Of a DNA stretch of 64,000 nucleotides, positions 31,732-64,000 are shown in pieces. Positions within the stretch are counted from its first letter, which is position 1; every line of letters begins with the position of its first letter. The stretch is taken from the sequence record NC_103192.1; one strand, given 5' to 3'. Position numbers and translations under genes: made by a program. The notes beneath the pieces are model-generated. The model searched no databases, had not been told where the DNA came from, and saw only the letters and a list, made by a program, of their open reading frames with translations. Source of the DNA: a phage.

Positions 31732-32667
31732 TCATTTACCGCAGATCTCTTTATACGCTGCTTCCACTATGCTGAACACCTCAGGCCTGTAGTAGAAGAA
31801 TTCGGTGCTACCATTAAATTTTACAGGAAAGTTTATTTTACACTTGTTGAAAATCTCGTGCACAGATTTTTCTACACTTAGCATGTTTTTAGTCGATCCG
31901 CTCCATGTTTTCAATATATGTAAATCATGTAGACCCGCGCCAGATGTATGTGCGCTTTTTAATATCTCATCCTTTCTATTATCAACACGGACGCTCACAC
32001 CTATCTTCATGAGTGTAGGCAATTCTAGATCATCAACCATGATGTAAAGTTTACCACAATCGTGGGATAAAAATCCACTTTTGGTGCATTTAGGACATCC
32101 TCTCCCTCCTAAATGCTTGGTAGGGGATTGACAGAAATCTCCATGGTCTGTGCAAACAATTGTAACCTTGATGTGTGAATTCACATACCTAACTTTAGAG
32201 TAATCATACTTGTTCCCGTGGACAGCCACAGCGTCCTGGATAAACTCTTCAGTGGTCTTTTTCATAGATCCGCCACATCCTGGACAGCCGTGACCACGCT
32301 TAAGGCTACCAGGAGTAGCTGACCATTCGTGGTTGCAAACTTTGCAACGACATAATACTTTATTACACCCTGTAGTGATCTCTTCTAATATTTCAATATA
32401 AGTATTTTTCTTCCCTATGTCCTCAACCCACTTTTCATGAGGTTTGGTTTTACTTTGTGCTATTTTTAGCTTCCTGCATTCAGGACACCCGCATTTTTGA
32501 TTTAGATGTATATCAGGTGTTTGGGCAAAGTGGGTGCCGCAGTGCTTACATATTATCTCCACTTTATCTTTACAGGTTTTATAGTCCACAAGAGAGTAGT
32601 CGTATTTATCACCATGTTTCTCTCTAGCCCTCCCTATAAATTCCTCCGTTGTCAGTCGTCTGGTCAC
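31732..32667 (-). CDS. Free-standing homing-endonuclease-like protein (tandem Zn-ribbon modules, T5orf172/GIY-YIG-like C-terminus)
   Basis: Two repeats of TTEEFI...HG.KYDYS.V.Y...C..HG; C-terminal KLYIMVD...KIGVS block; inserted between nrdG and nrdD. Confidence 0.4.
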   Translation of the reverse strand: MTRRLTTEEFIGRAREKHGDKYDYSLVDYKTCKDKVEIICKHCGTHFAQTPDIHLNQKCGCPECRKLKIAQSKTKPHEKWVEDIGKKNTYIEILEEITTGCNKVLCRCKVCNHEWSATPGSLKRGHGCPGCGGSMKKTTEEFIQDAVAVHGNKYDYSKVRYVNSHIKVTIVCTDHGDFCQSPTKHLGGRGCPKCTKSGFLSHDCGKLYIMVDDLELPTLMKIGVSVRVDNRKDEILKSAHTSGAGLHDLHILKTWSGSTKNMLSVEKSVHEIFNKCKINFPVKFNGSTEFFYYRPEVFSIVEAAYKEICGK

Positions 32668-32734
32668 CGCTAAATCCTCTTGGTTGCTAATCTATGTACT
32701 AAGTGTGCCACATCCTTGTGGCTTTTGTCAAGTA

Positions 32735-33697
32735 TCAGCAACTACAACTTCCATAGTGCTTCACTCGCTCGATAACTTCCGCTTGCTTACCTGTGTTATA
32801 CGGCCTACTGTTCGGGCTGGAGAGATAGCCAGACACTCTTCGGATCACTGAGATATATTGTTCATCGTGGCATCCGCACGCAGGGCAGCAGAACCCTTTA
32901 GCTGTTGCACTGAACTCACCAGAGAAACCACACTTGAGACATTTATCCACAGGTTGGTTAATACCAAAATACATAATATGTTTATACCCGAAGTCAACAA
33001 GAGCCTCTAAAGCATCTAAGTTGTTTTTCAGATTTGGTGTCTCTATGTACCCAATGTTGCCACCAGAGGAGATCATAGCAAAACCTTCCTCATACTTCCA
33101 CTTATCAAAAGGTGAGCTATTGATCCATACTGGCTGGTGGAAACTGTTGGTGAGGTATTCATGCTCGTGCTTCAACACTTCAGGATATTCACGATCCAGG
33201 CAGGTTGCAGCCTTATAGCATAAACTCTCAGAAGGGGTGCCGTACAAGCTAAATGCTAGTCCACTTTCCTTCTTATATCGCTCACAAGCATCCTTCATGT
33301 GCTGAAGGATTCCAAGAGCTAAAGCCTTGTCACCCTCTCTGCCCAAAATCTGACAGGTTTCATACACACCAATATACCCAATACTGATGGAAGCGTACCC
33401 GTCATAGAAGAGTTTATCGATACTCTCTTCAGGATCCAGGCGAGCAAGAGCTCCTTCACACCACATGATAGGATTCTGCCCGGCCTTGGTGCCTTTCAGA
33501 CGGTTAACCCTTACAAGGTGAGATTCATATGCCAAATCCAGATACTCGTCAAGAACGGCAAAGAAATCAACACCTTCCGTCTTAGCTTTTGCCGCAATCA
33601 TTGGTAGGTTAAGGCTAACAACACCCAAGTTGAATCTGCCAAGGTATTTCTCCTCGCCTGTTACAGGGTCGCTATATTTCGATAAGAAACTTCTACA
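32735..33697 (-). CDS. nrdD: Anaerobic ribonucleotide reductase NrdD, exon 3 (glycyl radical domain)
   Basis: CRSFLS..NLGVVSLNLP and C-terminal RRVSGYL glycyl-radical motif plus Zn-ribbon cysteines align with E. coli NrdD C-terminus. Confidence 0.8.
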   Translation of the reverse strand, partial: CRSFLSKYSDPVTGEEKYLGRFNLGVVSLNLPMIAAKAKTEGVDFFAVLDEYLDLAYESHLVRVNRLKGTKAGQNPIMWCEGALARLDPEESIDKLFYDGYASISIGYIGVYETCQILGREGDKALALGILQHMKDACERYKKESGLAFSLYGTPSESLCYKAATCLDREYPEVLKHEHEYLTNSFHQPVWINSSPFDKWKYEEGFAMISSGGNIGYIETPNLKNNLDALEALVDFGYKHIMYFGINQPVDKCLKCGFSGEFSATAKGFCCPACGCHDEQYISVIRRVSGYLSSPNSRPYNTGKQAEVIERVKHYGSCSC

Positions 33698-34459
33698 CAT
33701 TATGTTCAAGGTGGTTCGCAAGGCCACCCCCGCACCTTTACGTGCTGCTGCATGTCCCCATGCAGATCAGACTATATCTTCACACTTAGTGTGTCTACCA
33801 TTTCGAGTGTCATCAGCTTACACCCTACACCGCTACATTCATCACGGTTAGTCGTTAGGCATTTCGTAACAGAACTCGTAATCATAGTTATTAGGTGCAC
33901 CACGTTTCAGGATAGCAGATATTCTTTTTCTATCTATTCCTAAAACATCAGCACAACATCTCAGACTCTTAAAGTGAATAACCACACCAGTTAATTTGTG
34001 GGTGGCTTTCACCCCGTGACATCTTGTGTAAAAAGCATAACAGTTGTTGTCGTATCCTTCTTGAGTATTGTCTGGGCAAGCTCCCCACTCAAGGTTGTAT
34101 ACGCTGTTATCTTTCCTGTTGTCACCTTTGTGCTTAACATATGGTAAATTGTCTGGATTTGGTAAAAACGCTTCAGCAACAAGTCTGTGAACCCTTAGGC
34201 AAACAGTCTTTTTGTTCTTGCGTATCCTGACAAGACGGTAACCTGTGTTTATCTCTTCCCACGAATGAATAATTCTTTCATTTTCGTATCGGGTGCAATA
34301 AACATTGCCCATCTCGTCAATTTCATAACCTTCAAAATCACGAATTTGTTTTCTCATTTCAGGACTCCTCTTAGTCAGGAGTTCTGTTACGTTTAGCACG
34401 GGATTGTCCGTTCTGGAGTTTCCCCGTTTAGATAGATTTTACATGAGCAGTTATAGTTT
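33698..34459 (-). mobile_element. Group I intron 2 in nrdD (contains HNH endonuclease ORF)
   Basis: Exon 2 ends ...SMG (codon ggt, terminal U), exon 3 resumes CRSF, restoring the conserved PMGCRSF block; 3' end carries AAGATATAGTC P7-like element and a P9 hairpin. Confidence 0.65.
33848..34399 (-). CDS. HNH homing endonuclease (intron-encoded)
   Basis: VKHKGDNRKDNSVYNLEWG HNH_3-type motif; N-terminal FEGYEIDEMGNVY module. Confidence 0.7.
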   Translation of the reverse strand: MLNVTELLTKRSPEMRKQIRDFEGYEIDEMGNVYCTRYENERIIHSWEEINTGYRLVRIRKNKKTVCLRVHRLVAEAFLPNPDNLPYVKHKGDNRKDNSVYNLEWGACPDNTQEGYDNNCYAFYTRCHGVKATHKLTGVVIHFKSLRCCADVLGIDRKRISAILKRGAPNNYDYEFCYEMPND

Positions 34460-34759
34460 ACCCATGCTTGTTACTTTGCCGTCTGTTGAACCTGTCACTT
34501 TTCTATTTAGCGGTACAGATACGAAGTCGGGATAAATCCGCTCTGCAGAGCATTCCAGAGCCAACCGTTTCAAATCATAGTTAGGATCCCCAGGATTCAT
34601 GTTGACACCCTCTTCTAGGAAGAACAGCACTTTAGGGAACACAGGTGTGATACGTTCTTCACCAAGACCCATTTTGTGGACTTTCAAGTAATTTTTGGTA
34701 ATCATTCTACCAAAGACCGAGGTATCCAGTCCTAAACTTAATGTGATGAATGGAGTCTG
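34460..34759 (-). CDS. nrdD: NrdD, exon 2
   Basis: QTPFITLSLGLDTS...ITPVFPKVLFFLEEGVNMNPGDPNYDLKRLALECSAERIYPD aligns with E. coli QTPFVTFGFGLGTS...AVFPKLVFAIRDGLNLKKGDPNYDIKQLALECASKRMYPD. Confidence 0.75.
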
Positions 34760-35556
34760 CTGTCTCCTCCCTGTGTTTCCACAGGGCCAGACTATCTCTT
34801 ACTCTACTTCAATAAGATAATAACCCTTTATTGTGAGATGCTTACCTTCGGCATTTCCTTCGATAGCCCTATGAACGTTACCTACGTTCAAATTTAAGGC
34901 TTTTGCACAGGCATAGAGTGAAGGATATTCACCAACCAAGGTTTTCCCTTTGTATGCCTGCACTTTCCTATAGCACTTACCTGGACAAAGTCCTGTTCGG
35001 AAAGCATGTCTCTTATTATCTTCCGGCAAAACCCACTCTAGGTTAGACGGATGATCATTCAATGTATTGCCATCTTTATGATTCACTTCCCAGTTTTCAG
35101 GGTCTTCTGGGACATCTGGCAAACAATACAAGGCAACAACCCTTGAGGTTTGGATTCGAATCTTTTTACCTTTGTGGTTGAAAGAGTACATATAACGGCG
35201 TTTAACATGCTTGTTACCTTTTCCATAACCTCCCCACAATATTGGGTGTAGCATTCCACGTTTTCCGTATACGTTTCCAACCTCATCAATCACATAGTTT
35301 GACTCTTCACCATTAAGAATGATCTTTTTCATAGAGCCTCTCCATTTCGAAGTTAGTATTTCAACTAACCCCTACACTACTTGGTTCAGAAATGTTTGTC
35401 AAGCATCTCTGCCTTTCGTTAGTCGTTACAACCGTTCCAACTCCTGTAAGAACTAGTCACGGGATTGGCGTAGCTTTCGCCTTAGCGTTCCCCGTTAGCC
35501 GGATTTACCGACCCCTCTTATGAGGTTAGGAGAGTTTTACAACGGCCAGTTTGTTA
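34760..35556 (-). mobile_element. Group I intron 1 in nrdD (contains HNH endonuclease ORF)
   Basis: Exon 1 ends ...SVNG then in-frame stop; exon 2 starts QTPF; intron 3' end has GAGATAGTCTGG plus hairpin; 5' part has GTTGTAACGACTAACG core-like element. Confidence 0.65.
34799..35332 (-). CDS. HNH homing endonuclease (intron-encoded)
   Basis: VNHKDGNTLNDHPSNLEWV HNH_3-type motif. Confidence 0.7.
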   Translation of the reverse strand: MKKIILNGEESNYVIDEVGNVYGKRGMLHPILWGGYGKGNKHVKRRYMYSFNHKGKKIRIQTSRVVALYCLPDVPEDPENWEVNHKDGNTLNDHPSNLEWVLPEDNKRHAFRTGLCPGKCYRKVQAYKGKTLVGEYPSLYACAKALNLNVGNVHRAIEGNAEGKHLTIKGYYLIEVE

Positions 35557-36417
35557 ACCGTTGACAGAAGTTAACGTATTGATTTGATAGAGCAAAGTCT
35601 GCATGCTGTCAAATACGTCTTTATCTGTCATTTGCATTGCAACAGTCTCAGCATCTGGCAACCAATGTTCCTGGCAAAATTTAAGGTTCTTCTCATAGGT
35701 CGCTTCAGCATACTGTGCCAGATAATGATCAATATGACTCATGGTCTGACCGCCATATTGAGCACTAGCTACTGCACTAGAGATTTGGCTAAGGATTGTT
35801 GTTGCAACCCCTATTGACTTCGGCTTACTGACATGGGCGTTACCAATGTTGAATCCGTTTTCCAACATATCTGGATAATTTACCAAACAACAGTTTGTTA
35901 ACGGACTGATCAAATAGTCAAGATCATGCACATGGATGAAGCCTTTGTTGTGCTCTTCGGAGACACGGTCTGGCAGGATCTGTGTTGATGCAAGGTGTTT
36001 GCTAAGGATGCCTGCAAGCAGGTCACGATGAGTATGCACATGATTAGTAGGCTTATTTGCGTTTTCTTTTGTAAATTCATCACAAGTACGATCCAAGAAG
36101 CCACTAATATCGGCAAGCAGTTTTCCACCTGCCTCTCTGTTATTATCTCTTGTCTGTCTATACTGGATGTATTCTCTGGCTGCACATTTTAAACCCATAT
36201 CCATAAGAGCATCTTCAACAAGGATATGGATATTTTTTACAGAGATCGTGCACTGGTCAGTTGGCAGATTGTTGGCAACAACTTCATTAACCGCACAGGC
36301 AATCCGGTAAGCTTCTTCTTCAGTATGTCCAGACTCAAGTAAGGCGGACTCTGCCGCCTTGATCACCTTAATTCCGTTATAGACCTCTTCTCTACCGTCC
36401 CGTTTTACAACTTTCAC
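35557..36417 (-). CDS. nrdD: NrdD, exon 1 (ATP-cone and N-terminal core)
   Basis: MKVVKRDGREEVYNGIKVIKAAE ATP-cone start; NENANK...RDLLAGI, HDLDY, PKSIGVAT blocks match E. coli NrdD. Confidence 0.8.
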
Positions 36418-41920: not shown

Positions 41921-42120
41921 TATTTAGCTCTCCTTGTTTTAATTTTGGAAATTTCGTCTGGGTTTATGTTGGCCTTAAATGCAAGGTATCTGTTAAACAT
42001 ATCAGAGCACATGTCTTGGGTGATCCTGGAGGCATACACCAGCTTACCGCCCAGATCATACACCTCTATCCAGTCACCGTATCTGACTACAGGATCGCCA
42101 CCTTTAGAACATCTGCCCAT
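41920..42120 (-). CDS. Hypothetical protein
   Basis: 1-nt overlap with thyX. Confidence 0.35.
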   Translation of the reverse strand: MGRCSKGGDPVVRYGDWIEVYDLGGKLVYASRITQDMCSDMFNRYLAFKANINPDEISKIKTRRAK

Positions 42121-42121
42121 T

Positions 42122-42715
42122 TCAAATACCTTCTAAAAACTTCCCTATTTTGTACCAGCTGTTAGCGGTATAGTCAACACTAACCTTCAACTCCTCGAAT
42201 TGCTCGTAAGGAGTGTCTTTTAAGATTTTAATAACTTCAGGACGTGAAGCGAATTGATTCAGGTATTCATGCCTGTCGTCAATTATAACATCTACAGCCA
42301 CATTACCTTTGAAATGTGTGGCGTAGAAGCCGTGACCCTGGGTGTGATCGTCCAGATCCATAAAATCGCTGGTCCAACGCTTTAAGAACCTTGATTTAGA
42401 TGCAAGGTGACCTTTCTTACATACAGAGATAAATGCAAGCTTGTGACCACGAGCCACCAAATCTTTCATAACCTCAATAGCCCCCTCTTCAGGCTTAAGA
42501 AAGTCGTAGAGGAACGGGTCACTCCAGAAATCAAAAGGCCCTATGATGTTTTCTTTGGGGCGATCAGGCCAATACTTTGACAGATCGTAATACATCAGTC
42601 CGTTAGAAGGTTTAGCGACTGTCTTGCTGGCTGGACCATACAAACGCTCTAGCCATTCCCACCATGCTGTTCCTGAGTCTACCAGTGTTAAATCTACATC
42701 AATTCCGATCAGCAT
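42122..42715 (-). CDS. HAD-family 5'(3')-deoxyribonucleotidase
   Basis: N-terminal DxDxT motif GIDVDLTLVD. Confidence 0.55.
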   Translation of the reverse strand: MLIGIDVDLTLVDSGTAWWEWLERLYGPASKTVAKPSNGLMYYDLSKYWPDRPKENIIGPFDFWSDPFLYDFLKPEEGAIEVMKDLVARGHKLAFISVCKKGHLASKSRFLKRWTSDFMDLDDHTQGHGFYATHFKGNVAVDVIIDDRHEYLNQFASRPEVIKILKDTPYEQFEELKVSVDYTANSWYKIGKFLEGI

Positions 42716-42720
42716 TGTTC

Positions 42721-44280
42721 TCAGCCCTCTTTAGCATCAATATACTTGCACACAATCTCAGATGCGCACTCCCAAGGAGCTCCCTCGGGGTTAACAACAT
42801 CAAACTCGATACCTTTTATCCCGTTCTTCTCTAAGCTAAGGTAAGTTCTGGAATCATTTCCCCAATCATATCCTGCACGGTGGATACGGAACAGTAGAAG
42901 ATCGCCACCTGTGCTGTATGCGTACTCGCCAAGGCATGCCAGCTCCTCTTTGAAGCCACCGTCGGAGTAAACAACAACCCCTTTACCTTCAGGGAAATCT
43001 TTCTTCAAGGATGCGACTGCGGCCTTACCGAAAGCATCTTCACCAAAGATAGGTTTAATCAGATTTTCACTACAATGGATCATCCATTCTCGCGGAGAAA
43101 CATGCTTGCCGTCTATCATTAAGAACGGGCACGGTTCTTCTTTGTAGCGGCGATCATAAAGTGCATTCCACAACTGTGGTGAAATACCCGCTGCCTTAAT
43201 TGCCACACTGAATAGCATTTCCTTTACCTCGCGGTGATGCGAGTTTGGAATGGCTTCCAACAAAAGATCTGCGATATGGTCTTTTCCACTGTTACCTGTT
43301 AAAAACACCATACCGTTTTGTCTTGCCACCCAAAATCCGGTTGTTGTGGTAAAGCAGTAACACTTACCCCCAGGTAACTCCTCTTTGTAAGGTTGAAAAG
43401 CTTTATCTGGATTATCATATCCGCCACTTTTACGCATCGAATAAGAGTCTGACTTTAGAATTTTTACCGCATAGCAAACGCTACGAGTTCTGCTCTCTTT
43501 ATCACACTCCCTTTTGTAGTTATCTATTTCAATTTTGGCCTTTCTTCCACATTTTGCTGCTAAAAGCTGAAACAGATCTGCCTCCTCTTTAGAAGTGGTT
43601 GAGAAAGATTTGTATTTCTCGCACCCATCCCATTTCAGCATCTCGTTTAGTAGTTTTTCACTAGCATTAGAAGAGAGATTCCACCAATGGCTAGGTATAC
43701 CATCTTTCTTCATGAAAGGGCTGTTGTAAATGAAAAAACGGGTGTAGCCAGGCATACTATCAAACTCTTTTTCGGAAAAGGTTACTCCAGTTCTTTTAAA
43801 TAAGTATCGTAGCCTCTCCTTTTTACGGTCCTTTTTAATATTAAACATCAAAACACCCTCCCGATTTTTAACCTCAGAGGAGTCTGCTAAGATTGCAACT
43901 CTAAGCAGGTCAAAATCGTCAACATCCTCTCCAGATTCTTGATGGAAGGTGGCAGGTATATATCCATCGTAGCCAGTTTTGGATTCCAAAGTTATCTCTG
44001 ACCACTCTCTAGCAATTCTTGATCCTCTTCTGTTTTCATACAGAACTTTGTGGTTAGGTGTTAAAACCATGGACCATGTGGCAAAAACGCCCTTTTCAAA
44101 AACTGGAGTATTGCCTTCAATAAATTCAGGTATCTCCCAATGCATTGCCCCAAATTTATCGCACACTGCCACGAAATCATTATCAAAATCTTCTATACTT
44201 TTCCACCCAGATTTGGTGAGGAACTCTGTACCACTCGGGACGCAGCACGGTGGAGCGTTAAGAACAATAATATCCATCAA
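42721..44280 (-). CDS. P-loop nucleotide kinase-like protein interrupted by an intein
   Basis: N-extein MMDIIVLNAPP(C) and C-extein SGKDHIADLL reconstitute a Walker-A-like loop; insert starts CVPSGTEF, has TPNH block and ends FLTGN before Ser. Confidence 0.5.
   Translation of the reverse strand: MMDIIVLNAPPCCVPSGTEFLTKSGWKSIEDFDNDFVAVCDKFGAMHWEIPEFIEGNTPVFEKGVFATWSMVLTPNHKVLYENRRGSRIAREWSEITLESKTGYDGYIPATFHQESGEDVDDFDLLRVAILADSSEVKNREGVLMFNIKKDRKKERLRYLFKRTGVTFSEKEFDSMPGYTRFFIYNSPFMKKDGIPSHWWNLSSNASEKLLNEMLKWDGCEKYKSFSTTSKEEADLFQLLAAKCGRKAKIEIDNYKRECDKESRTRSVCYAVKILKSDSYSMRKSGGYDNPDKAFQPYKEELPGGKCYCFTTTTGFWVARQNGMVFLTGNSGKDHIADLLLEAIPNSHHREVKEMLFSVAIKAAGISPQLWNALYDRRYKEEPCPFLMIDGKHVSPREWMIHCSENLIKPIFGEDAFGKAAVASLKKDFPEGKGVVVYSDGGFKEELACLGEYAYSTGGDLLLFRIHRAGYDWGNDSRTYLSLEKNGIKGIEFDVVNPEGAPWECASEIVCKYIDAKEG
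43291..44244 (-). mobile_element. Intein (Hint domain with degenerate LAGLIDADG-like region)
   Basis: Hint blocks A (C-x-x-x-G-T), B (TPNH), terminal ...GN then S; internal LLRVAILADSS resembles a LAGLIDADG motif. Confidence 0.5.
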
Positions 44281-44480
44281 AAACCTCCGTGGTATTCTTC
44301 AACTGCATCAATAATACTTTTACACTTATCTACCAGCTCGTTAGCCACTACAGCATCGTCTTCCCAAACAGCCTCCTCAATCTGATCAAGCAGTGATCGC
44401 ATCTTACCCATCATTTCTGGGATAAAGTCTTCTGAAAAGCTGTCTGGAATTGTTAACTTTAGTGTCATTGTGGCCTCCAA
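44277..44480 (-). CDS. Hypothetical protein
   Basis: 4-nt overlap. Confidence 0.35.
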   Translation of the reverse strand: MEATMTLKLTIPDSFSEDFIPEMMGKMRSLLDQIEEAVWEDDAVVANELVDKCKSIIDAVEEYHGGF

Positions 44481-44495
44481 TCATACTATGCGTTA

Positions 44496-44954
44496 TTAGA
44501 AGTTTGTTTTTACACGTCCCTTTTCATCAACCTCGTTGTTAGCTAAAAGCGTTACAAAGTCTGTGAAACGGACATGAAGAACTTTTTTCTTATCAAGGTA
44601 TCCTAAAGCCACCCCTGAGAAATTTAGCATCAAAGGGGCTAAAGAAGCTCTGGCACTGAAATGCCGTTGTTCTACCCTTCCAACACCCTTAGTGTAGGAT
44701 GGGTTAAGATTGTAAGTTCTGAATCCTAGTTTTGTTGGAGCTTTAGAATTAAAAACAACTTTATAGCGTTTCTTACTCAACTTATGCTCCAGGATAAGCA
44801 TTCCCTTATCACCTTTGATAAGTTGAAAATCTGTAAAGTGCTCTTTTAAGACGAAAGGTAGTGCCAGTCCCATCGCCTGTCCTCTTTGTACCGCTGTCTC
44901 ACCAAAAGCTTTTGCATCAGTAAGTTCTTTGGTCAAGTCTATGCTTTTGATCAT
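44496..44954 (-). CDS. Hypothetical protein
   Basis: ORF; start may be internal. Confidence 0.4.
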   Translation of the reverse strand: MIKSIDLTKELTDAKAFGETAVQRGQAMGLALPFVLKEHFTDFQLIKGDKGMLILEHKLSKKRYKVVFNSKAPTKLGFRTYNLNPSYTKGVGRVEQRHFSARASLAPLMLNFSGVALGYLDKKKVLHVRFTDFVTLLANNEVDEKGRVKTNF

Positions 44955-45765
44955 ACCTGGTCTCCAAAATGTATTGTAGTTCTTTCTTACCTATACTCTT
45001 CATTCCAGCAGTCTTACCTGCTTCTTCTTGAAAAGAAGAATAGCATTCAGCAAACACTCTGTCAACACCGTCAACTAAAGATTTTATGAAATATGTTGAT
45101 TCTTCAGATTTTGGGTCATCATCCCCCAATACTTTTCCAGCATTATACCCAACACGTCTTACACAGAAGTCGTAGTCATCTGGTGTGCTAAAAGAAAATA
45201 ACTTATTCTCTCCAATCTCTACAGGATCCCTATTGCACGCCTTTTTCTCCCAAATTTGGAAAACACATGGCACGTCATAAGGTTTACCATTAAGTAAAAA
45301 CGAGTTCTTAGGGCACCTTTCGCTGTAGACAAGGTGCATAGACATGTCCAGTTTGTTTGCAAAAAATATTTTTTCAAATGTCCGTGGCAAGATGAAGGCT
45401 ATAGCCCCGCCAAGCTCTAGCAATGATGCACAATGGTTAAAGAATTTGCAAGCTAAAGATGAATTCTTGCCAAATGGTGGGTTACCTATGAAGACATCTG
45501 CCTTGGGATGCACCTCCAAGAAGTTTGCCTGAATGCACTGTGTTGGTCCTTCAAATTCAGGATCTGGTACTAGATCGTACGACAGTATCTTTGAAAATAG
45601 TTTTGAAAAAGAACCCCTTCCAGCAGAAGGCTCAACGTATGCACAATTCCCATACTTGTCTTTTACTTTACCAACAAGATATTCTGCATACTCAGGGTTT
45701 GTGTAATATTTGTCGTTGGACTCTTTCTTGCTCAAAGTGCCTCCAAAAGGAAAAGGGAGGCGCAA
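44917..45765 (-). CDS. DNA N6-adenine methyltransferase
   Basis: Motif I-like EPSAGRGSF, YYTNP, and catalytic motif IV GNPPF. Confidence 0.65.
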   Translation of the reverse strand: MRLPFPFGGTLSKKESNDKYYTNPEYAEYLVGKVKDKYGNCAYVEPSAGRGSFSKLFSKILSYDLVPDPEFEGPTQCIQANFLEVHPKADVFIGNPPFGKNSSLACKFFNHCASLLELGGAIAFILPRTFEKIFFANKLDMSMHLVYSERCPKNSFLLNGKPYDVPCVFQIWEKKACNRDPVEIGENKLFSFSTPDDYDFCVRRVGYNAGKVLGDDDPKSEESTYFIKSLVDGVDRVFAECYSSFQEEAGKTAGMKSIGKKELQYILETRYDQKHRLDQRTY

Positions 45766-51468: not shown

Positions 51469-51755
51469 TTAAACCTCCGATTAAACCACTCTTCCAACGA
51501 ATCATCATGTTTTGCATATTCTGCGGATTTTCTGACGCATACAGCATCCCACCACTCCGTGTATTGCCCCAAATGATACCTTTTGCTGTTTTCAGCAATC
51601 TGAACTTGCCACTTGTCAGTATCGTGTCTCCATTTAACACCTGTACACCCAGATGTGTTATTAAGTTTTAGTATTTTGCCTTTATAAGTACCTGAAACTA
51701 GCTCCCCATCTTTGTACCAAAATGCAAAATTATCATTGAAGAAGAAATTAATCAT
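51465..51755 (-). CDS. AP2-like DNA-binding domain protein
   Basis: GVKWRHDTDKWQVQI...YHLGQYTEWWDAV resembles AP2 domains of homing-endonuclease families. Confidence 0.45.
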   Translation of the reverse strand: MINFFFNDNFAFWYKDGELVSGTYKGKILKLNNTSGCTGVKWRHDTDKWQVQIAENSKRYHLGQYTEWWDAVCVRKSAEYAKHDDSLEEWFNRRFK

Positions 51756-60600: not shown

Positions 60601-60675
60601 GCCACCCAGTGCCCTGTTAGCTTAGTGGATAAAGCAGCGGCCTTCTAAGCCGTTGACACTGGTTCGAGTCCAGTA
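60601..60675 (+). tRNA. tRNA-Arg (anticodon TCT)
   Basis: Hand-folded cloverleaf: acceptor GCCCTGT/ACGGGGT, anticodon loop CTTCTAA, T-loop TTCGAGT, CCA encoded. Confidence 0.7.
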
Positions 60676-60815
60676 CGGGGTGCCAAGTTCTTTTTAATGT
60701 AGCTTACTTTAGCAGAGTAAATCTTCGGCAAGTGGCGGTAACCACTTTACCGATACCTCATAGTTAGTGGTGAGAACACTAGCTATTTTAAAAAGAATTT
60801 AAATATTAGTATTTA

Positions 60816-60903
60816 GGTGAGTTAATTCCGTAGGGGTAGCGGGGCAGACTGTAAATCTGTTATCATTGCGATTCGGGTGGTTCGACTCCATCACTCACCA
60901 CCA
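60816..60903 (+). tRNA. tRNA-Tyr (anticodon GTA), long variable arm
   Basis: Acceptor GGTGAGT/ACTCACC, anticodon arm CAGACTGTAAATCTG as in E. coli tRNA-Tyr, T-loop TTCGACT, CCA. Confidence 0.7.
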
Positions 60904-61017
60904 AATTTATATTTTTAAATGCATAAATCATACAGATAATGGCATTGATATTTATCGTCGTTTATACTAGTCACTAACTGCTCGAAAATCAGTGTCATTA
61001 TCAGTATTGTTTATAAA

Positions 61018-61108
61018 AGAGGGTAGGGAGCAATGGTGCTCAAGCGGTCTTGAAAACCGTCCCGTTGAGGATGACTCGATGATGGTTCGATTCCATTATC
61101 CTCTGCCA
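61018..61108 (+). tRNA. tRNA-Ser (anticodon TGA), long variable arm
   Basis: Acceptor AGAGGGT/ATCCTCT, anticodon arm CGGTCTTGAAAACCG, T-loop TTCGATT, CCA. Confidence 0.7.
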
Positions 61109-61206
61109 TATTGTTGACTATGTAATTAAGCGAAAGCCGGAAGCAGAACCGGATTATCAAATGTTACAGTCGTCATCGCCGACTAGCAACATGGTCAACA
61201 TACTGA

Positions 61207-61305
61207 GCTAGGTAAGCCCTTTGGCAAGGGCGAGGATTTTTAATCCTGAAAATAGACGAGGTAGTCGTTGAATACATAGGTGGTTCGATTCCATCACCTA
61301 GCACC
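61207..61305 (+). tRNA. Atypical tRNA-like element (type II shape, irregular anticodon arm)
   Basis: Acceptor GCTAGGT/ACCTAGC, D-arm GCCC/GGGC, T-loop TTCGATT, long variable arm; anticodon region is either a 5-nt loop or a 4-bp stem with TTTTTAA loop; no CCA. Confidence 0.35.
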
Positions 61306-61310
61306 TTTTT

Positions 61311-61386
61311 GCTGATGTAGCACAATTGGTAGTGCAATTGATTTGTAATCAATAGGTTGCAGGTTCAAGTCCTGCCATCAGCACCA
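61311..61386 (+). tRNA. tRNA-Thr (anticodon TGT)
   Basis: Acceptor GCTGATG/CATCAGC, anticodon loop TTTGTAA, T-loop TTCAAGT, CCA. Confidence 0.75.
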
Positions 61387-61387
61387 T

Positions 61388-61462
61388 GGCCCTGTAGCTG
61401 GAAGGTTCAAGCAAGCGACTCATAATCGCCAGACGGTGGTTCAATTCCACCCAGGGCCACCA
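61388..61462 (+). tRNA. tRNA-Met or Ile2 (anticodon CAT)
   Basis: Acceptor GGCCCTG/CAGGGCC, anticodon loop CTCATAA, T-loop TTCAATT, CCA. Confidence 0.75.
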
Positions 61463-61473
61463 AATAATAAATA

Positions 61474-61550
61474 CTCCGCGTAGCTCAGCTTGGTAGAGTG
61501 CCTGATTTGGGATCAGGAGGTCGAGTGTTCGAATCACTCCGTGGAGACCA
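61474..61550 (+). tRNA. tRNA-Pro (anticodon TGG)
   Basis: Acceptor CTCCGCG/CGTGGAG, anticodon loop TTTGGGA, T-loop TTCGAAT, CCA. Confidence 0.75.
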
Positions 61551-62654: not shown

Positions 62655-63079
62655 TGTCTAAGATTTACGGACCGTGTTCTGAAAAGCAGAAGATGATCCT
62701 CGAAAACGATGCAGATATTTTGGTAATCGGCGGTGCCGCAGGGTCTGGCAAGTCGTTCCTCTTGCAGTTGATGCCACTTAAAATTATTGATGACCCCCAC
62801 AGCTCTGTGGTTATGTTCCGAAGAACAACCCCACAGTTGGAAGGTGAGGGTGGGCTATGGCCTAAAGCAGTAGCTATTTATAGCGATCTGCCTGAAAACA
62901 TTAAGCCAAAGTTCAGAGAGAAGGATCATAAGTTCATTTTCCCACGGTTTGATCCGGGCACTGGCAAGTGGGATAGAAGCAAAAAGGGAGCTGTTGTAAA
63001 ATACTGCCACATGGAGTATGTACAAGATAAGCTTAACCATCAAGGGCTTGAGTACACCATGGTTTGCTTTGATGAGGGT
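62654..63079 (+). CDS. terL: Terminase large subunit, exon 1 (ATPase N-terminal part)
   Basis: Walker A GGAAGSGKS, Walker B MVCFDEG; reading frame then hits a stop where the intron begins. Confidence 0.7.
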
Positions 63080-63398
63080 TAATTTGTAGCTCTCGTAAAA
63101 CCTCCCTAATTGCGGGGAAATCTTTATTATTGACACCACCAACCTGTCATGGTAACATGACAGAGGCTTCGAAGAGAGATCGAAGGTATGGTAACAGTGT
63201 GTTAATTTAGATAATCCGCAGCGAAGCATCCGAAAGGATGAACGTTCAACGACTAGTCGAAAGACGTAGAATCAAGCGATTCGAAACGGGAGGATAAGCG
63301 GTTGTTGTCGCTTATAAGATATAGTCTGGTCTGCATGGAGACATGCAGCTGCCTGAAAATGGCGGGGCAAGACTAGCGACCTTGCCCGAACATAAACG
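63080..63398 (+). mobile_element. Group I intron (ORF-less) in terminase large subunit gene
   Basis: GTTCAACGACTAGTC and AAGATATAGTC core elements (P7-like), P9-like hairpin; exon 1 ends on U of ggt; frame resumes TQFEWEQIDYLMSRL. Confidence 0.6.
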
Positions 63399-63716
63399 AC
63401 GCAATTCGAATGGGAGCAGATAGACTACCTAATGTCTCGTCTGCGATCTCAGTCAAAGTATCCATCAAGAATGGTTATCAGCTGTAACCCCGACTCAGAA
63501 CACATGCTTGCCAAACTGATTAGGTGGTGGTTGGACGATGAAGGGTATCCAGATCCGGAGAAATGTGGTAAGAAAAGATATTTTATCCGACGCGACGGTG
63601 AATTTATCTGGGGAGACTCTAAGGAAGAGTTAATAGAGAAATACACCACGGTTAACGGACTAGGTGTGGAGATCAAGCCAAGACCGTTGTCATTCTCGTT
63701 CATAGGCGCAACCATT
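63399..63716 (+). CDS. terL: Terminase large subunit, exon 2
   Basis: Continues the ATPase domain (RMVISCNPD region) in frame after the intron; ends at a stop followed by a second intron. Confidence 0.6.
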
Positions 63717-64000
63717 AAATGATAGTGGCTTCGTGCAGAAATGCACGTCGAATAACTTCGTTAATTGCTGGAAAATCCTTTATGAAAGGACAATCAGCAG
63801 CCAAGCCTGAATATTCAGGAAGGTTCAACGACTATCCTGAGAGGGAGTAGGGCGCAAGCTTATGGCGCTCGAAAAGCGAAGCACCCTGAGATGGGTGGTG
63901 ATATAGTCTACTCTGCATGGTAACATGCAGCGGCACGTAATGGTGCGGAGGGTGGTGTTGCGACCACCCTTGAATATAAGGATTCGATAATCCTGTCTGC
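63717..64000 (+). mobile_element. Second group I intron in terminase gene (3' end beyond window)
   Basis: GTTCAACGACTA and GATATAGTC elements and a P9 hairpin closely resembling intron 1 and the nrdD intron. Confidence 0.55.

Follow-up and report, generated by a model that had tools for sequence, protein, structure and literature searches.

An apparently intact LAGLIDADG intein interrupting the Walker A loop of a predicted deoxynucleoside monophosphate kinase of Escherichia phage JEP1

The DNA analysed here (the window) is a 64,000-nucleotide (nt) stretch of the phage sequence record NC_103192.1, and the subject of this work is a gene on its minus strand in which a predicted intein interrupts the nucleotide-binding loop of a putative deoxynucleoside monophosphate (dNMP) kinase. 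In the open reading frame (ORF) list of the window, the enclosing ORF occupies 42721..44280 on the minus strand. The start codon is likely the ATG at 44275-44277, one codon after the TTG with which the ORF opens, because a Shine-Dalgarno sequence read from the DNA (GGAGG, 44284..44288, minus strand) precedes it by 6 nt and the TGA stop of the preceding ORF overlaps it. With this start, the precursor gene extends over 42721..44277 and encodes 518 amino acids (aa) plus the stop codon at 42721-42723. An exact-sequence look-up showed that the precursor protein is identical to GenBank QOC67814.1, the product of JEP1_188 of Escherichia phage JEP1, which is named “hypothetical protein” in GenBank and “DOD-type homing endonuclease domain-containing protein” by the automatic naming of UniRef.

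The gene is made up of three parts, all on the minus strand. The N-extein, MDIIVLNAPPC (11 aa, 44245..44277), comprises strand 1 plus the N-terminal half of the Walker A loop according to the alignment with the intein-less allele and a kinase model. The intein, CVPSG...FLTGN (318 aa, 954 nt, precursor residues 12-329, 43291..44244), was delimited by the alignment with empty alleles, a family profile and a structural model. The C-extein, 189 aa from Ser+1 onwards (SGKDH..., 42724..43290), contains the remainder of the Walker A loop and the kinase body, as judged from the intein-less allele and PHROG 139. A preceding sequence-only reading of this DNA had pointed to a Cys-initiated insert (CVPSGTEF), a TPNH block, a GN end followed by Ser, a C-terminal part starting with SGKDH and a LAGLIDADG-like segment; all of these are present, and the strand, which it did not give, is minus. 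Its N-terminal piece, MMDIIVLNAPP, started at the TTG and gives way to the ATG one codon later. Its division into 11, 318 and 189 residues was right for the 318-aa insert and left one Cys unassigned, which the empty allele identifies as extein residue -1.

The strongest evidence for an insertion comes from related phages that lack it. When window positions 42000-45000 were used as a megablast query against 50,697 phage records, 120 related Vequintavirinae-type phage genomes matched at 90-97% identity, and none of them carried the insert. Every record listed aligned as two pieces totalling 2047 bp, i.e., 3001 minus 954, and none of the 50,697 records covered as much as 80% of the query. Phage HMD-6 has an intein-less allele whose annotation is deoxynucleoside monophosphate kinase; the encoded protein is 98% identical to that of the window outside a gap of exactly 318 codons, and the C-extein shares 97.5% nt identity with the intein-less allele. 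The HMD-6-type empty allele reads MDIIVLNAPP-S-SGKDH and the window reads MDIIVLNAPP-C-[CVPSG...FLTGN]-SGKDH; residue -1 is Cys in the window and Ser in the intein-less alleles of its lineage. At the DNA level, the intein-less insertion site, for example in FV3 or rV5-like phages, is ...AATGCTCCACCAAGT^TCTGGAAAAGAC.... Since an eight-residue [A/G]xxxxGKD loop is found in 25 of 25 intein-less homologs, the first Cys of the “CC” pair belongs to the extein as residue -1, and the spliced P-loop would read APPCSGKD. An intein start at the first Cys was considered and rejected, as it would leave a seven-residue loop (APPSGKD), one residue shorter than in all 25 homologs. An in-frame insertion in a conserved host protein, without counterpart in the orthologues, is thus present at this locus, and the pattern is confirmed to lie far beyond chance.

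The interrupted protein was identified through its spliced sequence, which matched PHROG 139, “deoxynucleoside monophosphate kinase”, with an E-value (E) of 1.3e-42; relatives of the host protein are also annotated as dNMP kinase. A kinase model was made on an intein-less homolog (P0173) that is 96% identical to the extein. The model has a predicted local distance difference test score (pLDDT) of 91, and it places strand 1 at residues 2-7 and helix 1 at residues 14-24, so the insertion point 11|12 is predicted to fall in the Walker A loop, between its positions 4 and 5 (APPC|SGKD). The best fold match of this model in the PDB was the dNMP kinase of phage T4, 1DEK (E 1.2e-6, TM 0.65), followed by adenylate and thymidylate kinases. 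The extein of the window retains all 22 residues that are invariant among 29 homologs, and its gene shares a nucleotide-metabolism cluster with those for NrdG/D, NrdA/B, ThyX and a 5′ nucleotidase. By sequence and model, the host gene product is a T4-gp1-like dNMP kinase, with a P-loop kinase fold, a GKD-type Walker A motif and a predicted kinase activity. T4 gp1 shares with it the GKD-type Walker A, the setting in a phage nucleotide-metabolism cluster and, for the intein-less homolog, the best fold match, whereas identity between the two proteins is ~14% and the spliced extein has no sequence-level match in Pfam, NCBIfam or PDB.

The insert itself belongs to a widespread family. PHROG 32482 (“PhoH-like”) aligned along its entire length (E 2.6e-21), and a tblastn search found full-length relatives with 28-31% identity within RecD-like, PhoH-like, RtcB and helicase genes of 157 phage records. 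Further relatives were found in large protein collections, inside terminase-like, DnaC/IstB-like, ribonucleotide reductase (RNR) small subunit, ThyX, PolA, PhoH and amidase proteins. Such an occurrence of one element within many unrelated hosts is the signature of an intein. A family profile built from eight members matched 18,315 representative proteins at E<=1e-3, of which 2,370 also passed E<=1e-30. The intein of the window scored E 1e-131 against it and was the sole such match in a six-frame scan of the window, in which no second intein of this family was found.

Matches to known inteins were obtained from this family and from the predicted structure. Among 17 aligned relatives, Pfam recognised Intein_splicing (PF14890) in three, LAGLIDADG_3 in four, and Hint_2, Hom_end_hint and Hint in one each. 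Against solved structures, the family profile matched the AceL NrdHF intein 6ZGQ (E 2.9e-9) and the bacterial intein-like domain 2LWY (E 1.9e-4), with weak, sub-threshold matches to the Spl DnaX mini-intein (E 0.026) and the hedgehog Hint domain 1AT0 (E 0.033). The AlphaFold model of the insert has a pLDDT of 84.3 and a predicted template modelling score (pTM) of 0.85. Its first fold matches are solved inteins, with TliVMA at the top (E 7.7e-12), then PI-SceI, PhoVMA and PI-PfuI, and these are followed by the monomeric LAGLIDADG enzyme I-DmoI. The predicted Hint splicing domain comprises residues ~1-105 and ~286-318, and a two-motif LAGLIDADG endonuclease is nested between them. Taken together, the sequence and model evidence supports the insert being a genuine, apparently intact LAGLIDADG intein in the Walker A loop, with predicted splicing and cleavage activities. 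The proposals of the sequence-only reading of a P-loop insertion, a dNMP-kinase-like host and a Hint plus LAGLIDADG architecture are therefore borne out, by an insertion point that follows strand 1 and precedes helix 1 in the kinase model, by PHROG 139 and 1DEK, and by the insert model, its fold search and the profile matches to solved inteins and hedgehog Hint, respectively.

Conservation of individual residues was assessed in 182 full-length intein copies from 172 proteins, comprising the 150 best-scoring representatives together with hits of earlier searches. Cys1, the block A nucleophile (A:1, 44242..44244, minus strand), is Cys in 180 of the 182 copies. Block B, TPNH, runs from Thr62 to His65 (44050..44061, minus strand), and His65 (B:10) is His in every copy. 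The two residues that follow are Lys66 (B:11) and Val67 (B:12); the family has Val, Ile, Met, Leu or Phe at B:12 and Trp in 0/182. Blocks F and G, KCYCFTTTTGFWVARQNGMVFLTGN (43291..43365, minus strand), contain Cys297 (F:4), Arg308, Thr316 (G:5), Gly317 (G:6) and Asn318 (G:7), for which the family counts are 180/182, 178/182, 152/182, 177/182 and 181/182. The +1 extein residue in the family is Ser (87), Cys (69) or Thr (25), and it is Ser in the window. The core splicing residues Cys1, T62-P-N-H65, Asn318 and Ser+1 are all present, and the intein of the window has the family-consensus residue at each of these positions and at the two LAGLIDADG acids described below, with the Ser that follows Asp121 as its one deviation.

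The endonuclease part carries two acidic LAGLIDADG motifs in a two-lobed alpha-beta fold, for which I-DmoI and the endonuclease portions of PI-SceI and PI-PfuI are matches. Motif 1, LLRVAILADS (43879..43908, minus strand), contains the putative catalytic Asp121 (Asp or Glu in 179/182), with I-DmoI as fold match, and motif 2, LLNEMLKWDG (43624..43653, minus strand), contains Asp206 (Asp or Glu in 177/182). W205, D206 and G207 are nearly invariant in the family, and K141, W205 and K219, conserved endonuclease residues, are retained in the window together with both catalytic Asp. The LAGLIDADG-like segment had initially been described as degenerate; the endonuclease domain stands, and the “degenerate” label does not, as both catalytic Asp are kept and the domain is under purifying selection (see below).

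The insertion site is also characteristic of the family. In 125 of the 182 copies xGK follows the intein and the insertion lies at a Walker A motif, with GxxG|[S/C/T]GK[S/T] as the preferred site, where the intein separates the fourth and fifth residues. Other dNMP-kinase-like proteins (P0002 and P0003), whose exteins are 29-35% identical to that of the window, carry an intein at this site too. The “classic” P-loop site of mycobacteriophage terminase inteins, Lys|Thr, lies three residues downstream of it (PMC5050341).

To place the element in its evolutionary context, the window was compared with its nearest relative, P0001 (contig SRR10499703_2354), which carries an 82% identical intein at the same site and whose flanking genes have ~72-80% nt identity to known Vequintavirinae. 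Between the two inteins the ratio of non-synonymous to synonymous substitution rates (dN/dS) is 0.09, with 0.077 for Hint-N, 0.108 for the endonuclease and 0.048 for Hint-C. These low values in the Hint and endonuclease parts indicate that both activities have been under purifying selection. The inteins share 80% nt identity and the exteins 69%, with dN of 0.108 versus 0.226 and with dS saturated in the exteins. That the intein is less diverged than its extein points to a transfer between the lineages after their split.

Intein-plus and intein-minus alleles occur in each of the two lineages. Empty alleles of the second lineage have the sequence NAPMK|SGKD, and occupied ones have NAPPC|...|SGKD, once NGCPS|...|SGKD. 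The flanking residues co-vary with the intein, from PS to PC in the lineage of the window and from MK to PC in the second lineage, and the Ser+1 codon changes from TCT in empty alleles to AGY in occupied ones. For the lineage of the window, the codons are AAT GCT CCA CCA AGT|TCT in the empty allele and AAC GCT CCA CCG TGC|...|AGT in the window, and the next 30 nt are identical. Flanking markers that travel with an insert are what co-conversion during homing produces. Purifying selection, presence/absence polymorphism and co-varying flanking codons indicate, at the level of sequence, a functional and recently mobile element.

Our preferred reading, to which we assign a probability of roughly 0.8, is that the P-loop of the dNMP kinase contains a functional bifunctional intein, which splices by the class 1 pathway and is then spread by endonuclease-driven homing. 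According to this reading, the 518-aa precursor would be unable to form its ATP-binding loop. Cys1 would form a thioester at the N-junction, the N-extein would be handed from Cys1 to Ser+1, cyclisation of Asn318 would release the intein, and an O-N shift would yield the 200-aa kinase with its APPCSGKD loop. The excised intein would cut the intein-less allele (...AAT GCT CCA CCA AGT^TCT GGA AAA...) in co-infecting related phages, and repair from the intein-bearing copy would spread the intein along with a few flanking codons.

Several points weigh against this reading. Searched as precursor and as intein, the sequence has no direct match to Hint, intein or LAGLIDADG models of Pfam and NCBIfam, and phmmer against the PDB was empty as well, so the link to inteins rests on profile, family and fold evidence. 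The sequence-only reading had named the lack of a Hint-domain hit as an outcome that would speak against an intein; this is what Pfam and NCBIfam return for this single sequence, and it is outweighed by the empty-site, family and fold evidence. The penultimate His (G:6) is replaced by Gly317, the block F His (F:13) is absent and F:4 is Cys instead of Asp, and efficient class 1 chemistry is therefore not to be assumed. LAGLIDADG motif 1 ends in Ser, not Gly, after Asp121, a Ser that is found there in 6 of the 182 copies. The synonymous divergence between the two intein-bearing lineages (dS ~1.2) rules out a very recent transfer. The propagation of JEP1 on E. coli MG1655 (PMC8425383) speaks for this reading; the viability of a phage is no proof of splicing, though, since growth on laboratory hosts may not require the kinase, and no experiment on the JEP1_188 protein was found in the searchable literature. 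Regarding the missing histidines, the penultimate and block F His are frequent and not obligatory in inteins (PMC5050341, PMC7891396, PMC4031507). The Bethlehem RDF intein, with a penultimate Gly, splices completely, and its Gly-to-His mutant builds up precursor (PMC5050341); AceL NrdHF, also with a penultimate Gly, splices well, within minutes (PMC7891396). Given that phage class 1 inteins are often without the penultimate His (PMC5050341) and given the Bethlehem RDF precedent, its absence is no strong objection.

It is possible, though considerably less probable, that the intein splices while its endonuclease is dead, in which case the element would be immobile and inherited vertically. Motif 1 reads ILADSS, with Ser for the usual Gly, in both lineages, as would suit an inactive enzyme. 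The rarity of the intein points in the same direction: besides its absence from the 120 relatives, its DNA had no match in the 50,697 phage records (blastn, distant mode), and scans of IMG/VR and of JGI metagenome contigs turned up a single locus, at 23% identity, and nothing closely related. A 15-billion-protein collection gave a single cluster of 11 sequences, of which 6 bear the intein. Against a dead endonuclease stand the two catalytic Asp with K141, W205 and K219, the dN/dS of 0.108 in the endonuclease part, and the combination of two lineages whose exteins are more diverged than their inteins, co-varying flanks and polymorphism, which is as homing produces.

An unlikely alternative to Cys1-initiated class 1 splicing is that the intein is functional and initiates at Cys297 (F:4) via a branched thioester, similar to class 3 inteins, or that both cysteines are needed, as a relay or as a redox-sensitive Cys1-Cys297 pair. 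Position F:4 is usually Asp in standard inteins (PMC2807308, PMC4031507), and the near-invariant Cys at this position, with Thr at G:5 and Gly at G:6 in the counts given above, would suit such a route. The best sequence match to a solved structure, AceL NrdHF, is a proven class 3 intein with the same set of block F Cys, TGN end and no His (PMC7891396). This match is significant only across the N-terminal half, and the alignment of Cys297 with the mutated Cys124 of AceL NrdHF 6ZGQ falls in a low-scoring stretch (-0.6 bits) (PMC7891396). Cys1 is as conserved as Cys F:4 (180/182), which is unexpected if it were dispensable. The definition of class 3, no N-terminal nucleophile and Trp at B:12, fails on both counts, since the window has Cys1 and Val67, and no canonical class 3 DnaB intein structure is among the profile matches. 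Of the WCT triplet, the window has Cys297 (F:4) and Thr316 (G:5), with Val67 at B:12; an MCT variant of the triplet is known from a proven class 3 intein (PMC7891396).

That the insert no longer splices, leaving the kinase gene effectively knocked out and host or other phage kinases to supply deoxynucleoside diphosphates, is very improbable: the non-canonical residues at G:6, F:13 and F:4, the lack of a direct Pfam match and the Ser-to-Cys change at residue -1 would fit it, but the insert keeps an open, codon-exact frame over its 954 nt and retains every splicing residue conserved in the family, dN/dS is 0.05-0.08 in its Hint parts, the extein keeps 22/22 invariant kinase residues and is 97.5% identical to intein-less alleles, and the non-canonical residues in question are typical of a family of thousands and also occur in an intein that splices within minutes (PMC7891396).

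Compared with characterised or annotated systems, the functional intein proposed here is closest to the phage members of its own family, such as those of Vibrio phage 277E43-1 and Acinetobacter phage AM24 (PHROG 32482). These are alignable over the full length at 28-31% identity, have ~318 aa, and share Cys1, TxxH, Cys F:4, the TGN end, two LAGLIDADG motifs and a GxxG|[SCT]GK[ST] site in P-loop hosts. They differ in their hosts, which are PhoH-like, RecD-like, RtcB, DnaC-like and terminase-like proteins instead of a dNMP kinase, and in the low identity without a DNA-level match. AceL NrdHF (6ZGQ) resembles the intein of the window in Cys F:4, the Thr-Gly-Asn end and the lack of His at F:13 and G:6. 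Both have a basic amino acid at B:11 and, at B:12, a hydrophobic one other than Trp, and AceL NrdHF, too, probably originated in a phage (PMC7891396). In contrast, AceL NrdHF starts with Ala, is naturally split, lacks a nested LAGLIDADG domain, resides in the RNR protein NrdF and is experimentally class 3 via its block F Cys (PMC7891396), whereas the intein of the window has Cys1, is contiguous and carries an endonuclease.

The VMA inteins TliVMA and PhoVMA (7QSU, 7QSS, 7QST) and PI-SceI (1VDE) are the best fold matches (E 7.7e-12 to 1e-7) and share the Hint plus LAGLIDADG architecture, but their sequence identity is 10-16%, and they are larger and have accessory DNA-recognition domains. Archaeal VMA-b inteins occupy a P-loop (PMC8966425). 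PI-SceI was dropped as a parallel for V-ATPase P-loop insertion, because it lies at the yeast VMA-a site, which is separated by ~20 residues from VMA-b, the site in the P-loop (PMC8966425). The inteins of mycobacteriophages (TerL1-a/b in a P-loop, and Bethlehem RDF) are likewise phage-borne class 1 LAGLIDADG inteins, in which P-loop insertion is common and the penultimate His often replaced, while their P-loop site differs and lies between Lys and Thr (PMC5050341). The Bethlehem RDF intein was rejected as a close relative, with 22% identity over 166 residues and a pairwise E of 8e-4, and serves as a functional precedent only.

Further features, several of them putative mobile elements, were observed elsewhere in the window and on the P0001 contig. 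The anaerobic ribonucleotide reductase gene nrdD is split (window 32738-36417, minus strand) into an N-terminal part with an ATP-cone and NRDD profile positions 1-154 (35557-36417) and a C-terminal part with NRDD positions 263-562 and the glycyl-radical domain (32738-33727). Two HNH_3 endonuclease ORFs lie between them (33851-34399 and 34802-35332), and 34761-35557 is a 797-nt insertion that phage VB-EcoM-WM does not have. A 311-aa ORF (31735-32667, minus strand) encodes a DUF4379 treble-clef zinc finger and a T5orf172 domain and is possibly a free-standing homing endonuclease; part of it lies in a 664-nt stretch (32093-32756) without homology to the 719 nt found at the corresponding place in VB-EcoM-WM. 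At the position matching window 51695-51703, VB-EcoM-WM has 417 nt (L005:19998-20414) of an annotated “putative homing endonuclease” that are missing from the window, so each of these two close relatives has homing-endonuclease sequence that the other lacks. Two group I catalytic introns were detected on the plus strand shortly before the window ends (63070-63348 and 63706-63930; 84 and 93 bits, above the Rfam gathering threshold), and six tRNA matches (RF00005), two of them weak (35-39 bits), cluster at 60611-61547 on the same strand. On the P0001 contig SRR10499703_2354, the nrdD gene appears as four separate ORF calls, which have NRDD or Gly_radical matches (L002:9250-12261), and the kinase gene is preceded upstream by one HNH_3 and one Endonuclease_7 ORF. 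This region, too, is rich in selfish elements.

That inteins occupy the P-loops of phage ATPases for replication and packaging is well established. The element described here is a known kind of selfish element in a host gene for which we found no earlier report, and nothing in it overturns current understanding. No report of an intein in a dNMP kinase was found in the searchable literature, and the publication on JEP1 says nothing of an intein, of homing or of a kinase. Other Vequintavirinae carry inteins in helicase and RNR genes (PMC7344957).

For annotation, the finding means that a 518-aa “hypothetical protein” hides a 200-aa kinase, and that a very large intein family, with its 18,315 representative proteins, can escape the Hint and intein models of Pfam. 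The Cys at F:4, the TGN end and the absence of the histidines in an intein that starts with Cys1 are a modest mechanistic curiosity. To our knowledge, no current splicing scheme accounts for a need of both Cys1 and Cys F:4. If true, a family with Cys1, Cys F:4, Thr G:5, Gly G:6 and no assisting His may bear on the question of how class 3 inteins arose, for which convergence has been argued (PMC7664689) as well as a monophyletic origin in a phage gene (PMC4031507). Dozens of nearly identical phages that lack the intein serve as natural controls and, together with a second polymorphic lineage and the growth of JEP1 on MG1655, would make the splicing, homing frequency and co-conversion tracts of this intein directly measurable.

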